Shown here: positions 199 through 35,285 of the stretch, in pieces | Numbering within the stretch: position 1 is the first letter of the stretch | Layout: every line of letters begins with the position of its first letter | Source of the DNA: Escherichia coli | Lineage (GTDB): Bacteria > Pseudomonadota > Gammaproteobacteria > Enterobacterales > Enterobacteriaceae | DNA: 37,104 bases | NCBI RefSeq assembly: GCF_003334315.1 | Contig: NZ_QOWR01000047.1 | Direction: 5' to 3' (one strand) | The notes under the pieces: model-generated | The model's input: only the letters and a program-made list of their open reading frames with translations | The model's database searches: none | What the model was told of the DNA's origin: nothing | Program-made: the position numbers and the translations under genes

Positions 199-438
199 TT
201 AACCATTATCGACCACGATATTGCTTTTACGTAACAGTGGGCAATCTGTTATCCCCAAGAAACCACTTTTAGTGTGCAAGTATTGTACCGTGCTGGTGCC
301 TCTGGCAGTCAGATAGGTACATTGCAAACCTAATCCTGCGGCATTCTCTTTGCTTCCAATCAAAACGCCATATCCGCTGAGTAATAATCCTATCCATACC
401 AGTGCTATCAGCATAACTGTGCGAATGATGAATCGCAT
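199..438 (-). CDS. yobH: small inner-membrane protein YobH (79 aa)
   Basis: ORF track 79 aa, hydrophobic N-terminus (MRFIIRTVMLIALVWIGLLLSGYGVLIG); position divergent from mgrB as in K-12. Confidence 0.8.
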   Translation of the reverse strand: MRFIIRTVMLIALVWIGLLLSGYGVLIGSKENAAGLGLQCTYLTARGTSTVQYLHTKSGFLGITDCPLLRKSNIVVDNG

Positions 439-596
439 TACAACCTCTTCTCTTTTTATGTTCGCTTAATCGTAGCGGCAATATGCGCTGAAGCAAGCTA
501 CTCATTCCGAAAAAGCACGAATATCGACATAGTTAGGCGCTGTTTAACTAACGCATGCTAGTTTAATGACATAAGGTAGGTGAAGCGGAGATTGGA

Positions 597-740
597 GTGA
601 AAAAGTTTCGATGGGTCGTTCTGGTTGTCGTGGTGTTGGCTTGCTTGTTGCTTTGGGCGCAGGTATTCAACATGATGTGCGATCAGGATGTACAATTTTT
701 CAGCGGAATTTGTGCCATTAACCAGTTTATCCCGTGGTGA
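597..740 (+). CDS. mgrB: MgrB, 47-aa membrane peptide, PhoQ feedback inhibitor
   Basis: Manual translation from GTG at 597: [47 protein letters not shown]-stop (TGA 738-740). Below the 60-aa cutoff of the ORF track. Confidence 0.9.
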
Positions 741-814
741 TATCATTTTTTCAGCACTAGATTTTCTTCCTCTCCAGCAGTGGTAGAATAGCGCCTCTAC
801 TCAGAGGTGGTGAA

Positions 815-1102
815 ATGAACGAAGTTGTAAATTCAGGCGTGATGAACATTGCGTCTTTGGTTGTATCGGTGGTGGTTCTTCTTATCGGGCTCATCTTGTG
901 GTTTTTTATCAATCGTGCCAGTTCTCGGACTAACGAACAGATTGAACTGCTTGAGGCGTTGCTGGATCAGCAAAAACGTCAAAATGCACTGTTACGTCGT
1001 TTGTGCGAAGCAAACGAACCTGAGAAAGCAGATAAAAAGACCGTTGAGAGTCAAAAATCGGTTGAAGACGAAGATATTATTCGTCTGGTCGCCGAACGAT
1101 AA
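815..1102 (+). CDS. yebO: small membrane protein YebO (95 aa)
   Basis: ORF track 95 aa with a single N-terminal TM segment and charged C-terminal tail; synteny mgrB-yebO-yobF-cspC. Confidence 0.85.
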   Translation: MNEVVNSGVMNIASLVVSVVVLLIGLILWFFINRASSRTNEQIELLEALLDQQKRQNALLRRLCEANEPEKADKKTVESQKSVEDEDIIRLVAER

Positions 1103-1770
1103 TCCTTCCTCAATCTTGAGTAACCCCGTCGTTGAAGGGTTACTCAATTCATCCTGATTATACGCACTGCCATGGTGCAACTGCTTCAAATTAAAACTCT
1201 GGTCTGACTTCAAATAATTATCATATTATTTATTTGCGTAACGGGATATCAGAAAAAGATATTTTCCTCATTAATTTATTAGGATGTTTACATCGGATTT
1301 GTGATTAAGCGTGGTATTATTTATTAGCGAAATGTTTCTCTCTTGATTTTTTGCTCATTCATCAATTTTTCTTATTTTAAATTTTCAATCCCTTTGGGGA
1401 TTGACTTCTCTTTAGGGTAATTGATAGCCGTTAACTGACTGTTTTATGAGAAAAAGTGATATAACTTTTTATTCATTGCATAGCAAAAAATGTGATATTG
1501 CACGCACTATGTAATAACTTCTCCCACTGGCCTGGAACAACTGAACTTATTGAACTATGTTAGAAACTACGCCAGTTTAAGTATCTGCCTGAACTGGCAA
1601 GGTTAAGCACAATGATATATCGGCGCGTATTCCGTTGCATAAGTGTGCAAAAAAAGTGGAAGACGTATCGAGATTTGTGCGTCTGATCGAGACATGTTTA
1701 AAAATGGCTTGCCATAATTAACGTTGTATGTGATAACAGATTTCGGGTTAAACGAGGTACAGTTCTGTTT

Positions 1771-1914
1771 ATGTGTGGCATTTTCAGTAAAGAAGTCCTG
1801 AGTAAACACGTTGACGTTGAATACCGCTTCTCTGCCGAGCCTTATATTGGTGCCTCATGCAGTAATGTGTCAGTTTTATCTATGTTATGCCTGCGGGCGA
1901 AGAAAACAATCTAA
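1771..1914 (+). CDS. yobF: YobF, 47-aa small protein co-transcribed with cspC
   Basis: Manual translation from ATG 1771: [47 protein letters not shown]-stop (TAA 1912-1914); 12 nt upstream of cspC. Confidence 0.85.
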
Positions 1915-1926
1915 GGAATTTTTCAA

Positions 1927-2136
1927 ATGGCAAAGATTAAAGGTCAGGTTAAGTGGTTCAACGAGTCTAAAGGTTTTGGCTTCATTACTCCGGCTGATGG
2001 CAGCAAAGACGTGTTCGTACACTTCTCCGCTATCCAGGGTAATGGCTTCAAAACTCTGGCTGAAGGTCAGAACGTTGAGTTCGAAATTCAGGACGGCCAG
2101 AAAGGTCCGGCAGCTGTTAACGTAACAGCTATCTGA
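1927..2136 (+). CDS. cspC: cold-shock-domain protein CspC (69 aa)
   Basis: ORF track protein [37 protein letters not shown]... carries the RNP1 motif KGFGFI of the CspA family. Confidence 0.95.
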
Positions 2137-2301: not shown

Positions 2302-3111
2302 ATGTCTTTTTCCTGTCCACTTTGCCATCAGCCTCTTTCGCGTGAAAAAAACAGCTATATCTGTCCCCAGCGACATCAGTTTGATATGGCGAAAGAAGGG
2401 TATGTCAATCTGCTGCCCGTTCAGCATAAACGGTCTCGTGATCCGGGCGACAGCGCGGAAATGATGCAAGCACGCCGCGCATTCTTAGATGCCGGACATT
2501 ATCAGCCGCTGCGTGATGCAATTGTCGCCCAACTGAGGGAACGGCTTGATGATAAGGCCACGGCGGTGCTGGATATTGGCTGTGGTGAAGGGTATTACAC
2601 ACACGCATTTGCCGATGCGTTGCCCGAAATCACCACGTTTGGTCTGGATGTTTCGAAGGTAGCGATAAAAGCGGCGGCGAAACGCTATCCGCAGGTCACT
2701 TTTTGTGTCGCTTCCAGCCACCGTTTGCCGTTTTCCGATACCAGTATGGACGCCATAATACGTATTTACGCGCCGTGTAAAGCAGAAGAATTAGCACGAG
2801 TAGTGAAGCCCGGCGGCTGGGTCATTACTGCCACGCCGGGACCGCGACATTTGATGGAGCTGAAGGGGCTGATTTACAATGAAGTACATCTTCATGCACC
2901 TTATGCCGAACAACTGGAAGGTTTTACATTACAGCAGAGTGCGGAGTTGTGTTATCCGATGCGTCTTCGCGGTGATGAAGCCGTCGCATTATTGCAGATG
3001 ACGCCGTTTGCCTGGCGTGCGAAGCCAGAAGTCTGGCAAACACTGGCAGCAAAAGAAGTGTTCGACTGCCAGACGGACTTTAATATTCACCTCTGGCAGC
3101 GTTCTTATTAA
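2302..3111 (+). CDS. rlmA: 23S rRNA (guanine745-N1)-methyltransferase RlmA
   Basis: 269 aa; N-terminal Cys4 zinc ribbon (CPLCHQPL...CPQRHQFD) and SAM-binding motif [10 protein letters not shown] visible in the translation. Confidence 0.9.
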
Positions 3112-3674: not shown

Positions 3675-3689
3675 GACAATGTCCTGACC

Positions 3690-3900
3690 GGGGTATCCAT
3701 AAAACACATCATCGCCCCCAGCAAACATGCATACATGAACAACAAGCCGCGATGGTTTTCGCGTTCATGCAGGCATAGCGATTGATGTGCATATGGTCTC
3801 GCCTGACTGAAAGCATTCAGTCCGTACGTGCCACGTTTTGCAACGAGTATGTTGACACGTACATTTCCGGAATCTGGAAATCGGCTACTCCCCAAATGAG
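3690..3900 (-). promoter_or_regulatory. probable yybP-ykoY (Mn2+) riboswitch in the mntP 5' leader
   Basis: The minus-strand leader contains GGGGAGUAG (plus 3885-3893) followed by UGUCAACAUACUC ... CUUUCAGUCAGGCGAGACC, motifs I associate with this riboswitch class; E. coli mntP is known to carry one. Boundaries are approximate and the fold was not computed. Confidence 0.55.
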
Positions 3901-4037
3901 GGCGCAACCTTAACATATTTTGAGAATATAAAACAACTGTTGGAATATATTATTTCATTGCTTTATTGATAACGATTTACATTTAGATTTATATATCAAT
4001 GAAACGTTAAAATAAATAACAAATAAGGGAAGAGGTA

Positions 4038-4097
4038 ATATAGCCTAAGCTATGTCTGATTATTAAAAATACACTAAACATAGCTTTGGCTAAATTC
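4038..4097 (-). promoter_or_regulatory. two MntR-operator-like palindromes upstream of the mntP promoter
   Basis: ATAGC-CTAA-GCTAT palindrome at about 4038-4055 and AAACATAGC-TTTG-GCTAAATT at about 4077-4097, resembling the MntR operator as I recall it (AAACATAGC...GCTATGTTT). Confidence 0.4.
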
Positions 4098-4102
4098 ATA
4101 AC

Positions 4103-7314: not shown

Positions 7315-7776
7315 TTGCTACCTCCTTTATTATCGTTAACACCTCAACGTGCCAGATGTATTTTTGAATCGTCGTCCACAATCGAATCGATTCAGATAAG
7401 GGCTACAACCAAAAACCCCTGCGTTTCGCGATTTATTTTAGATATCGAAAAAATTATTTTATGTGATGAAGATCCGTAATTTAACTTTCGATTAGCAGAA
7501 ATTTCGAAAGGTAAAATATCCTTGTCACATTCGTTTGCAAAGGAAGGTAAATCTTTGCCAAATCAGAGGCGTCTCTGATATGTTTAACTCCCGTTTAACA
7601 ACCATGGAGTATAGGGCAGTAGCCCGCAGTATGGATCGTCACCGACGTCATTTCAGCATCAGGCCTTTTAACGCCTGCCTTTCTGGCACTCTATGCCGCA
7701 CCTTTCGTTTGCATTTTGTCGTTACGCCTGCATTATTTCTGGCGTCGAATAGCTATTCCTTAAGCAGGAGCTTGTC

Positions 7777-9333
7777 ATGGAATTCTTAATGGACCCCTCA
7801 ATTTGGGCGGGGCTACTCACGCTTGTTGTTCTCGAAATTGTGCTGGGTATCGATAACCTGGTCTTCATCGCCATTCTTGCTGACAAACTGCCGCCAAAAC
7901 AACGCGATAAAGCGCGTTTGCTGGGGTTATCACTGGCGCTGATTATGCGTCTGGGGCTGCTGTCGCTGATTTCATGGATGGTCACGCTGACCAAACCGCT
8001 ATTTACCGTCATGGATTTCTCCTTCTCCGGACGCGACCTGATTATGTTGTTCGGGGGGATATTCTTGCTGTTCAAAGCAACAACCGAACTGCATGAACGG
8101 CTGGAAAACCGCGATCATGATTCCGGCCACGGTAAAGGCTACGCCAGTTTCTGGGTGGTCGTCACACAGATTGTCATCCTTGACGCCGTCTTCTCGTTGG
8201 ATGCGGTAATTACTGCAGTAGGGATGGTTAACCATCTGCCGGTGATGATGGCGGCGGTAGTGATTGCGATGGCGGTTATGTTGCTGGCATCCAAACCGCT
8301 GACGCGATTCGTTAACCAGCACCCCACGGTGGTGGTGCTCTGTCTGAGCTTCCTGTTAATGATTGGTCTGAGTCTGGTGGCAGAAGGTTTCGGTTTCCAC
8401 ATTCCGAAAGGTTACCTGTATGCCGCGATTGGCTTCTCGATCATCATCGAAGTGTTTAACCAGATTGCGCGTCGCAACTTTATTCGTCACCAGTCGACTT
8501 TGCCGCTGCGAGCGCGTACTGCCGATGCCATCCTGCGTTTGATGGGCGGGAAACGTCAGGCCAATGTTCAGCACGATGCCGATAACCCGATGCCGATGCC
8601 GATCCCGGAAGGTGCATTTGCCGAAGAAGAACGTTACATGATTAACGGCGTACTGACGCTGGCGTCGCGTTCTCTGCGCGGGATCATGACGCCGCGCGGT
8701 GAAATAAGCTGGGTTGACGCTAATCTCGGGGTCGATGAAATCCGCGAGCAGCTGCTCTCCTCACCGCACAGCCTGTTCCCGGTATGTCGCGGTGAACTGG
8801 ATGAAATCATCGGAATCGTACGTGCTAAAGAACTGCTGGTGGCGCTGGAAGAGGGCGTTGATGTGGCGGCGATTGCTTCGGCGTCTCCGGCGATTATCGT
8901 CCCGGAAACCCTCGATCCGATCAACCTGCTGGGCGTGCTGCGTCGCGCTCGCGGGAGCTTTGTTATCGTGACCAACGAGTTTGGTGTGGTACAAGGCTTG
9001 GTCACGCCGCTGGATGTGCTGGAAGCCATTGCGGGTGAATTCCCGGACGCTGACGAAACGCCGGAAATCATTACTGATGGTGACGGCTGGCTGGTAAAAG
9101 GCGGTACAGATTTGCATGCCTTGCAGCAGGCGCTTGATGTTGAGCACCTTGCCGATGACGATGATATCGCGACGGTCGCGGGCCTGGTGATCTCGGCAAA
9201 TGGTCACATTCCCCGTGTGGGCGATGTGATTGATGTAGGGCCACTGCATATCACCATCATTGAAGCCAATGATTATCGTGTTGATCTGGTTCGCATTGTT
9301 AAAGAGCAACCGGCGCACGATGAAGATGAGTAA
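7777..9333 (+). CDS. yoaE: TerC-family membrane protein with CBS and CorC/HlyC domains, YoaE
   Basis: 518-aa ORF; N-terminal polytopic membrane domain plus soluble C-terminal half; divergent from manX as in K-12. Confidence 0.9.
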
Positions 9334-14630: not shown

Positions 14631-14810
14631 ATGTTTGCAGGTTTACCTTCACTCACCCATGAACAGCAGCAAAAAGCTGTCGAGCGGATCCAGGAACTGA
14701 TGGCACAAGGGATGAGCAGCGGCCAGGCAATCGCGCTGGTGGCAGAAGAGCTGCGTGCCAACCACTCCGGCGAGCGAATCGTGGCGCGTTTTGAGGATGA
14801 AGACGAGTAA
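14631..14810 (+). CDS. yoaH: UPF0181 small protein YoaH (59 aa)
   Basis: Manual translation [59 protein letters not shown]-stop; the track shows only an antisense 66-aa ORF here. Confidence 0.8.
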
Positions 14811-19616: not shown

Positions 19617-21302
19617 TTGAAGAAGGTTTGGCTTAACCGTTATCCCGCGGACGTTCCGACGGAGATCAACCCTGACCGTTATCAATCTCTGGTAGATATG
19701 TTTGAGCAGTCGGTCGCGCGCTACGCCGATCAACCTGCGTTTGTGAATATGGGGGAGGTAATGACCTTCCGCAAGCTGGAAGAACGCAGTCGCGCGTTTG
19801 CCGCTTATTTGCAACAAGGGTTGGGGCTGAAGAAAGGCGATCGCGTTGCGTTGATGATGCCTAATTTATTGCAATATCCGGTGGCGCTGTTTGGCATTTT
19901 GCGTGCCGGGATGATCGTCGTAAACGTTAACCCGTTGTATACCCCGCGTGAGCTTGAGCATCAGCTTAACGATAGCGGCGCATCGGCGATTGTTATCGTG
20001 TCTAACTTTGCTCACACACTGGAAAAAGTGGTTGATAAAACCGCCGTTCAGCACGTAATTCTGACCCGTATGGGCGATCAGCTATCTACGGCAAAAGGCA
20101 CGGTAGTCAATTTCGTTGTTAAATACATCAAGCGTTTGGTGCCGAAATACCATCTGCCAGATGCCATTTCATTTCGTAGCGCACTGCATAACGGCTACCG
20201 GATGCAGTACGTCAAACCCGAACTGGTGCCGGAAGATTTAGCTTTTCTGCAATACACCGGCGGCACCACTGGTGTGGCGAAAGGCGCGATGCTGACTCAC
20301 CGCAATATGCTGGCGAACCTGGAACAGGTTAACGCGACCTATGGTCCGCTGTTGCATCCGGGCAAAGAGCTGGTGGTGACGGCGCTGCCGCTGTATCACA
20401 TTTTTGCCCTGACCATTAACTGCCTGCTGTTTATCGAACTGGGTGGGCAGAACCTGCTTATCACTAACCCGCGCGATATTCCAGGGTTGGTAAAAGAGTT
20501 AGCGAAATATCCGTTTACCGCTATCACGGGCGTTAACACCTTGTTCAATGCGTTGCTGAACAATAAAGAGTTCCAGCAGCTGGATTTCTCCAGTCTGCAT
20601 CTTTCCGCAGGCGGTGGGATGCCAGTGCAGCAAGTGGTGGCAGAGCGTTGGGTGAAACTGACCGGACAGTATCTGCTGGAAGGCTATGGCCTTACCGAGT
20701 GTGCGCCGCTGGTCAGCGTTAACCCATATGATATTGATTATCATAGTGGTAGCATCGGTTTGCCGGTGCCGTCGACGGAAGCCAAACTGGTGGATGATGA
20801 TGATAATGAAGTACCACCAGGTCAACCGGGTGAGCTTTGTGTCAAAGGACCGCAGGTGATGCTGGGTTACTGGCAGCGTCCCGATGCTACCGATGAAATC
20901 ATCAAAAATGGCTGGTTACACACCGGCGACATCGCGGTAATGGATGAAGAAGGATTCCTGCGCATTGTCGATCGTAAAAAAGACATGATTCTGGTTTCCG
21001 GTTTTAACGTCTATCCCAACGAGATTGAAGATGTCGTCATGCAGCATCCTGGCGTACAGGAAGTCGCGGCTGTTGGCGTACCTTCCGGCTCCAGTGGTGA
21101 AGCGGTGAAAATCTTCGTAGTGAAAAAAGATCCATCGCTTACCGAAGAGTCACTGGTGACTTTTTGCCGCCGTCAGCTCACGGGATACAAAGTACCGAAG
21201 CTGGTGGAGTTTCGTGATGAGTTACCGAAATCTAACGTCGGAAAAATTTTGCGACGAGAATTACGTGACGAAGCGCGCGGCAAAGTGGACAATAAAGCCT
21301 GA
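19617..21302 (+). CDS. fadD: long-chain-fatty-acid--CoA ligase FadD
   Basis: Start placed at in-frame TTG 19617 ([14 protein letters not shown]...) giving 561 aa; AMP-binding motif [12 protein letters not shown]. Confidence 0.93.
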
Positions 21303-21320
21303 GCGTTAAGTCAGTCGTCA

Positions 21321-21347
21321 GACGCCGGTTAATCCGGCGTTTTTTTT
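21321..21347 (+). terminator. intrinsic terminator downstream of fadD
   Basis: ACGCCGG-TTAAT-CCGGCGT hairpin followed by seven T. Confidence 0.6.
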
Positions 21348-30414: not shown

Positions 30415-30489
30415 TTACCACCATCCCAGCTCAGTGCCGAGTACGACAATAATCGCCACACCCATCATAATAATCGTTGTTTTTTTCAT
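30415..30489 (-). CDS. yoaJ: YoaJ, 24-aa hydrophobic peptide
   Basis: Manual minus-strand translation MKKTTIIMMGVAIIVVLGTELGWW-stop; too short for the ORF track. Confidence 0.7.
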   Translation of the reverse strand: MKKTTIIMMGVAIIVVLGTELGWW

Positions 30490-30491
30490 CT

Positions 30492-30590
30492 TTATGCTCC
30501 CGGGGCAGCATAGCCGCCAATAAAAAACCATGCTAAAAATACGACCGCTGTAATGAAGATTACAACCGGAAAAATAATACCGATTCGCAT
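30492..30590 (-). CDS. yoaK: YoaK, 32-aa hydrophobic peptide
   Basis: Manual minus-strand translation MRIGIIFPVVIFITAVVFLAWFFIGGYAAPGA-stop, immediately upstream of yoaJ. Confidence 0.7.
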   Translation of the reverse strand: MRIGIIFPVVIFITAVVFLAWFFIGGYAAPGA

Positions 30591-35180: not shown

Positions 35181-35285
35181 ATGAACGATCAAATGTTTGT
35201 CGAGACACTGATTATCACGTCATCGTTTTTTGCCATTGCTGTTGTACTGGTTTTGTCCGTTCTTCTTATCGAACGGACCGGCTAG
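35181..35285 (+). CDS. yoaI: YoaI, 34-aa hydrophobic peptide
   Basis: Manual translation [34 protein letters not shown]-stop (TAG 35283-35285). Confidence 0.7.

Follow-up and report, generated by a model that had tools for sequence, protein, structure and literature searches.

The small membrane peptide MgrB of Escherichia coli K-12 (b1826, YobG, "PhoQ kinase inhibitor") inhibits the kinase PhoQ in a negative feedback (PMC2789325), and its residues K2, K3, W20, C28, D31, F34, G37, C39 and W47 were found to be important by mutagenesis (bioRxiv 10.1101/438515). The promoter of the Salmonella gene yobG (= mgrB) was analysed by DNase footprinting and contains a PhoP box in direct orientation, aCAGTTActcctGGTTTAa, 12 nt from a -10 element TAATTT, with one PhoP-dependent transcription start 5 nt past the -10 and a 26-nt leader; a second PhoP box, GTTTTTAGGAATGATTCAC, lies further upstream in reverse orientation (Zwir 2012 and Table 1 therein, PMC3335776). 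In E. coli, the mgrB promoter served as a positive control in EMSA (PMC8355897). A genome scan with the strict PhoP consensus listed yoaE and never mentioned mgrB (PMC5775216).

YobF of K-12 (b1824; PF10736, DUF2527; "DUF2627" in PGAP) was detected by ribosome profiling, and its translation increases under heat shock or low Mg2+ with its mRNA unchanged. On fractionation the peptide is found with the membranes, and the growth defect of a yobF deletion at low Mg2+ was rescued by the wild-type gene and not by a copy in which the ATG was changed to TAA (PMC11429745). The yobF-cspC operon is repressed by OxyS, which pairs near the yobF Shine-Dalgarno sequence (PMC10965054). RegulonDB lists an RpoD promoter upstream of yobF that is overlapped by an RpoN site, and an RpoN gSELEX peak has been reported between yobF and yebO (PMC8743547). 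Small translated ORFs located in the leader of a downstream gene have been described for MgtL before mgtA and YoaL before yoaE/mgpA (PMC12421838). Here, we describe mgrB, yobF and their surroundings in an E. coli contig in relation to these systems.

Gene content and small genes

The window (the whole 37,104-nt stretch of DNA analysed here) is E. coli chromosome and is matched by 5,426 of 5,426 complete genomes. The genes in its first 3 kb are, in this order, yobH (199-438, minus strand), mgrB (597-740, plus strand), yebO (815-1102), yobF (1771-1914, plus strand), cspC (1927-2136, plus strand) and rlmA (2302-3111), which is the K-12 arrangement. The MgrB, YobF, YebO, CspC and YobH proteins are 100% identical to their K-12 MG1655 products, and RlmA differs from K-12 by a single residue (Y in place of the K-12 H, in ...LHAPYAEQ...), which is the sole protein difference across the six genes compared.

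A preliminary description of this DNA had placed two 47-aa genes in the cspC neighbourhood, mgrB with a GTG start and yobF, and had stated that both fall under a 60-aa cutoff and translate to the known peptides. Both genes were recovered at these positions in our ORF list (yobF with an ATG start), the neighbourhood was correctly named, and the translations are those of b1826 and b1824. Since both genes are annotated by PGAP/RefSeq in ordinary E. coli genomes, their absence from the ORF track is explained by the 60-aa cutoff only. The preliminary description was right about this cutoff and left uncounted five further annotated K-12 genes of <60 aa in the window, all of them identical to K-12: yoaL (7631-7789, plus strand, 52 aa; the leader ORF of yoaE/mgpA), yoaH (14631-14810, plus strand, 59 aa), yoaJ (30415-30489, minus strand, 24 aa), yoaK (30492-30590, minus strand, 32 aa) and yoaI (35181-35285, plus strand, 34 aa). 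The cutoff therefore hides at least 7 annotated genes in this 37-kb window. We conclude that mgrB and yobF are bona fide, intact and ordinary E. coli small genes that have long been known.

mgrB and its promoter

The mgrB gene comprises 47 codons and a stop, with a Shine-Dalgarno sequence GGAG (587-590, plus strand) located 6 nt before the GTG start. We aligned the locus with its orthologs in Salmonella, Klebsiella, Citrobacter, Leclercia, Cronobacter and Atlantibacter (7 genera including Escherichia), and both the GGAG and the GTGAA at the gene start are kept in all of them. The MgrB protein matches the NCBIfam equivalog model NF007635 with 89.9 bits (cutoff: 40) over residues 1-47 of 47, and Pfam PF13998 with an E-value of 2.8e-18. 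It carries each of the nine residues listed above, and its layout is that expected of the family: lysines at the N-terminus, a single transmembrane helix that includes W20, and C28, D31, F34, G37, C39 and W47 in the periplasmic tail; the periplasmic motif MCDQDV.FFSGIC.IN..IPW is common to the 7 genera. The yobH/mgrB/yebO context typical of the family is conserved. Relative to K-12, the gene has the same GTG start and the same site between yobH and yebO, and the DNA is identical between 499 and 585, covering the PhoP box and the -10 described below. Single-base changes were found at 499 and 585 upstream of the gene, and one synonymous change was found at 648; all are neutral. A further difference from the K-12 locus is an IS1 end situated 75 nt past the yobH stop in the window.

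PhoP sites were searched for with a 17-mer consensus, KGTTTA-N5-KGTTTA, i.e., (T/G)GTTTA-N5-(T/G)GTTTA. The preliminary description had proposed that a TGTTTA at 541-546 is half of a PhoP box and had found no convincing second half-site at the canonical spacing. The first part of this proposal stands and the second does not: the PhoP motif scan, which had been suggested there as a check, returned a full 17-mer at 530-546 (plus strand; TAGTTA-GGCGC-TGTTTA) with 2 mismatches. The half-sites are TAGTTA at 530-535 (4/6 consensus positions) and TGTTTA at 541-546 (6/6), separated by a spacer of the canonical 5 nt, so that TGTTTA is the promoter-proximal repeat and its partner TAGTTA lies upstream. 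With TAGTTA as its first repeat, this box escapes a strict (T/G)GTTTA-N5-(T/G)GTTTA scan, and the published strict-consensus scan that lacks mgrB thus explains why the box had not been completed; the partner had probably been sought downstream of TGTTTA. A literal literature search for the box sequence returned nothing relevant.

An extended -10 element is located at 556-564 (plus strand), with TG at 556-557, a C, and TAGTTT at 559-564. The gap between the box and the -10 hexamer is 12 nt (547-558) and the box is in direct orientation; with 12 nt between a putative box and an extended -10, the elements are arranged as in PhoP class II promoters. Across the 7 genera, A529, G532, T533 and A535 around and within the upstream repeat and G542-A546 (GTTTA) in the downstream repeat are invariant, as are T556, G557, T559, A560 and T564 of the -10, and the 5-nt spacer of the box varies freely. 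The footprinted Salmonella yobG box and -10 align exactly with 530-546 and 559-564, respectively, and by this alignment the predicted box at 530-546 is orthologous to the footprinted one. Transferring the mapped Salmonella start through the same alignment predicts that transcription of mgrB begins at 570 (C570, ± 1-2 nt; plus strand), which would give a 5' UTR of ~27 nt.

In both the E. coli and the Salmonella ("architecture II") promoter the box is direct, its first repeat is degenerate, (T/C)AGTTA, and its second follows the consensus; both also have 12 nt between the box and a weak TA...T -10, and a short leader. The two differ in that the second repeat begins with T in E. coli and with G in Salmonella and that the spacer is GGCGC in E. 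coli and CTCCT in Salmonella; the deviation in the first repeat of the E. coli box resembles the Salmonella "S2" submotif (PMC3335776). Matches to the PhoP consensus with ≤2 mismatches occur in this window at a background rate of 2.6e-4 per position per strand, a frequency at which the match at 530-546 is by itself weak, and we base the case for the predicted mgrB box on position, conservation and orthology. Loose matches (≤3 mismatches) number 126 in the whole window versus 85 expected, an excess that is uninformative on any single site and was therefore not counted as evidence.

A possible second PhoP box of mgrB, in reverse orientation, is found at 497-515, reading CTTTTTCGGAATGAGTAGC on the minus strand. 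It aligns opposite the Salmonella upstream box GTTTTTAGGAATGATTCAC with a weak match, and its ATTCC..AAA core is partly kept in the 7 genera. The E. coli version is more degenerate (TTTTTC/GAGTAG) than that of Salmonella (TTTTTA/GATTCA), and we retain it as a candidate.

yobF and the cspC leader

The yobF gene comprises 47 codons and a stop and lies inside the cspC mRNA leader, with 12 nt between its stop and the cspC ATG, the same gap as in K-12, from whose YobF the window has zero differences. YobF matches Pfam PF10736 with an E-value of 2e-30 (residues 1-38 on the 38-position model), its homologs carry the same domain, and in 9 other genera, too, yobF directly precedes cspC in the same orientation. 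CspC matches NCBIfam NF008190 with 170 bits. A consensus scan identified a sigma-70-like promoter at 1689-1718 (plus strand; GAGACA, 18 nt, CATAAT, with TG at 1710-1711), which is predicted to serve yobF-cspC; positions 1700-1715 are invariant or almost so in 10 genera. Sigma-54 -24/-12 elements were sought by eye in 1700-1715 and in 1528-1566, and the spacing is unfit in both. A GAGG at 1754-1757 (plus strand) stands 13 nt before the yobF ATG, an unusually long distance, is invariant in 10 genera and falls within the published OxyS pairing area.

The 668-bp spacer between yebO and yobF (1103-1770) is AT-rich (GC 0.35). In Cronobacter, Atlantibacter, Leclercia and Serratia the same gap holds a gene for a ~330-aa protein of the metallo-beta-lactamase fold (PF12706/PF13483). 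The reading of the spacer as a remnant of this gene was rejected, as tblastn found no remnant in E. coli, Salmonella or Klebsiella. Separately, a block at 1528-1566 (CTGGAAsAAsyGAAsTTrTTGArCTATGkTArAAA), ~200 nt upstream of yobF, is common to E. coli, Salmonella and Klebsiella, with the rest of the spacer around it divergent and AT-rich; the TGnTAGAAA within this block could be a distal extended -10.

RF01766, the Rfam model for cspA, covers both leader and coding sequence and matches 1751-2211 with 135.7 bits (gathering threshold: 78), a score that derives mostly from the cspC coding part, the leader being aligned with low posterior probability. In this alignment a small hairpin in the 3' end of yobF (UGCC-UGCG-GGCG, 1888-1899, plus strand) falls on the GCC-gaaa-GGC hairpin that the model has in the cspA leader. 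The corresponding RNAalifold columns (170-173/178-181) show invariant GC, CG and CG pairs and a loop that varies. The cspA mRNA leader/thermoregulator thus resembles the yobF-cspC arrangement in that a CspA-family gene is preceded by a long leader and that a GCC-loop-GGC hairpin stands ahead of the Shine-Dalgarno sequence. To our knowledge the cspA leader, unlike that of cspC, contains no translated ORF. MgtL and YoaL, both Mg2+-related leader ORFs, share with yobF that they are translated small ORFs in a leader; unlike the leader-peptide scheme, YobF has its own phenotype in trans (PMC11429745).

Insertion sequences and other features of the window

The window starts inside an IS1 element, of which it holds the C-terminus of InsB and, up to 123, the right inverted repeat (...GGAGTCATTACC). 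This IS1 (1-123) sits between kdgR and yobH, 75 nt past the yobH stop. In strain MDK6L1 an IS1 junction lies 1 nt from that of the window, and in the window the K-12 run GGTGGCG is shorter by a single G. Since the junctions are 1 nt apart and the G is missing, this suggests independent IS1 insertions at a hot spot between kdgR and yobH. In many other E. coli genomes (including a W3110 derivative) the right end of an IS1 abuts AGATTTCGGG, equivalent to window position 1737/1738, which is 33 nt upstream of the yobF ATG and downstream of the predicted -10 (1713-1718); because it lies downstream of this -10, an IS1 at that position should separate yobF-cspC from its native promoter.

Elsewhere in the window, a near-perfect PhoP box with one mismatch, TGTTTAACTCCCGTTTA, is located at 7581-7597 (plus strand), with TATAGG 12 nt and the yoaL ATG 33 nt downstream of it. 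This is the known yoaE box, demonstrated in Shigella flexneri by EMSA and DNase footprinting (PMC5775216). With the mgrB box and the yoaE box, the window contains two PhoP-controlled promoters. A PhoP-like 17-mer with one mismatch at 4064-4080 (minus strand), far upstream of mntP, is probably a chance match. The leader of mntP (region 3675-4102, minus strand) is described as a yybP-ykoY Mn2+ riboswitch. An Rfam scan of the whole window at gathering thresholds returned cspA and sroD only, and no riboswitch in the mntP leader; the sroD sRNA (21261-21346, plus strand) is a full-length match of 115.2 bits in the expected rnd-fadD region.

Proposed mechanism and alternative explanations

We are highly confident in a joint explanation in which mgrB is controlled by a PhoP class II promoter and feeds back on PhoQ, and yobF is translated within the cspC leader. 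Under low Mg2+, PhoQ would phosphorylate PhoP, and phosphorylated PhoP would bind the direct repeat at 530-546, which would replace the -35 element, and activate mgrB in class II fashion. RNA polymerase would be recruited to the extended -10 (556-564) and would begin transcription from ~570. The 47-aa MgrB would then insert in the inner membrane with its N-terminus in and C-terminus out and inhibit the PhoQ kinase, closing a negative feedback loop. For yobF, the scheme would have it as the first cistron of a yobF-cspC transcript, within a long cspC leader of the cspA type, and translated in E. coli into a 47-aa membrane-associated peptide. The ORFs, the identity to K-12, the family membership and the conserved promoter anatomy come from the present analysis; PhoP binding in Salmonella, the inhibition of PhoQ, the translation and phenotype of YobF and the repression by OxyS are taken from the literature.

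Short ORFs are common (53 ORFs of ≥20 aa within the first 3 kb), and the frame of mgrB, of yobF or of both might be a chance one that merely resembles a known peptide. We give this virtually no credence and regard it as refuted by the complete identity of both products to K-12 proteins encoded at the syntenic position and by the curated NCBIfam and Pfam models, which match MgrB and YobF above cutoff; orthologs of the two genes are moreover present in 7-10 genera. Hardly more probable, for mgrB, is a PhoP box formed by TGTTTA (541-546) and a partner downstream of it in place of TAGTTA. AGTTTA at 560-565 does look like a half-site, but the two repeats would be 19 nt apart from start to start, where the consensus has 11, a 17-mer beginning at 541 has no match at ≤3 mismatches, and the hexamer overlaps the conserved -10 (TAGTTT, 559-564). 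Klebsiella has TATCCT and Leclercia TAACCT there, which keep the -10 positions and lose the half-site, and the box footprinted in Salmonella is the upstream pair (PMC3335776). AGTTTA 560-565 was therefore rejected as a PhoP partner on account of its wrong spacing, its overlap with the -10 and the lack of conservation of the half-site.

The alternative that bears on yobF overlaps in part with the joint explanation: yobF may be conserved mainly as RNA, as a cis-acting segment of the cspC leader, with the peptide, or at least its C-terminal half, evolutionarily incidental. The gene would then be an upstream ORF that is translated and can vary freely in its 3' half. Csp autoregulation, sRNA or RNase sites, or translational coupling to cspC are the roles named for such a segment. 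Ten genera, Serratia and Brenneria among them, have nearly the same DNA from ~1700 up to the ATG of cspC, so that nucleotide conservation reaches ~70 nt upstream of the yobF ATG, and the Rfam cspA leader and coding sequence model covers the yobF region. We computed the mean pairwise divergence by codon position (1/2/3). In the 7 genera it is dominated by third positions in cspC (0.004/0.004/0.155), in mgrB (0.225/0.098/0.435, a typical coding pattern) and in yebO (0.254/0.105/0.565). In contrast, yobF codons 1-37 have no third-position excess in either the 7-genus set (0.054/0.036/0.036) or the 10-genus set (0.086/0.080/0.064). The end of the yobF ORF is variable. The product has 47 aa in Escherichia, Salmonella, Citrobacter and Leclercia; it is shorter in Enterobacter (44 aa), in Serratia, Brenneria and Atlantibacter (38 aa each), in Yersinia (26 aa) and in Klebsiella (24 aa; in K. 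pneumoniae, codon 25 is TAA in place of TAT), and longer in Cronobacter (56 aa). The DNA downstream of these stops stays similar between genera, and only residues 1-37 of YobF are shared across genera. With its flat codon profile and variable ORF end, the DNA therefore looks constrained as a cspC leader beyond or instead of the peptide. Against a mainly RNA-level role, E. coli YobF has been detected, fractionates with membranes and complements the low-Mg2+ defect only with an intact ATG (PMC11429745), and all genera examined keep the frame over the N-terminal 24-37 residues. An RNA structure found no support: compensatory changes were seen in 0 of 54 pairs predicted by RNAalifold in the yobF-cspC leader, and shuffled sequences fold as well as the E. 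coli leader does (MFE z = +1.65); with so little variation between the sequences, this speaks neither for nor against a structure. We consider conservation mainly as RNA a possibility to be kept in mind, though a somewhat doubtful one. The lack of a third-position excess in yobF weakens the view that it is conserved for the peptide alone and leaves its membership in the YobF family intact. The most economical reading is that the yobF stretch is translated and may, as part of the cspC leader, also be under nucleotide-level constraint.

Biological meaning

Both mgrB and yobF were already known genes, and nothing in them is new; they are textbook cases of small genes lost to length cutoffs and carry little weight as a discovery. 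The one less routine feature is the flat codon profile of yobF, which hints, in a modest and testable way, that the cspC leader holds sequence-level information beyond the peptide. If yobF is indeed kept chiefly as a cis-acting part of this leader, the yobF/cspC leader would serve two functions, one through its RNA and one through the peptide.
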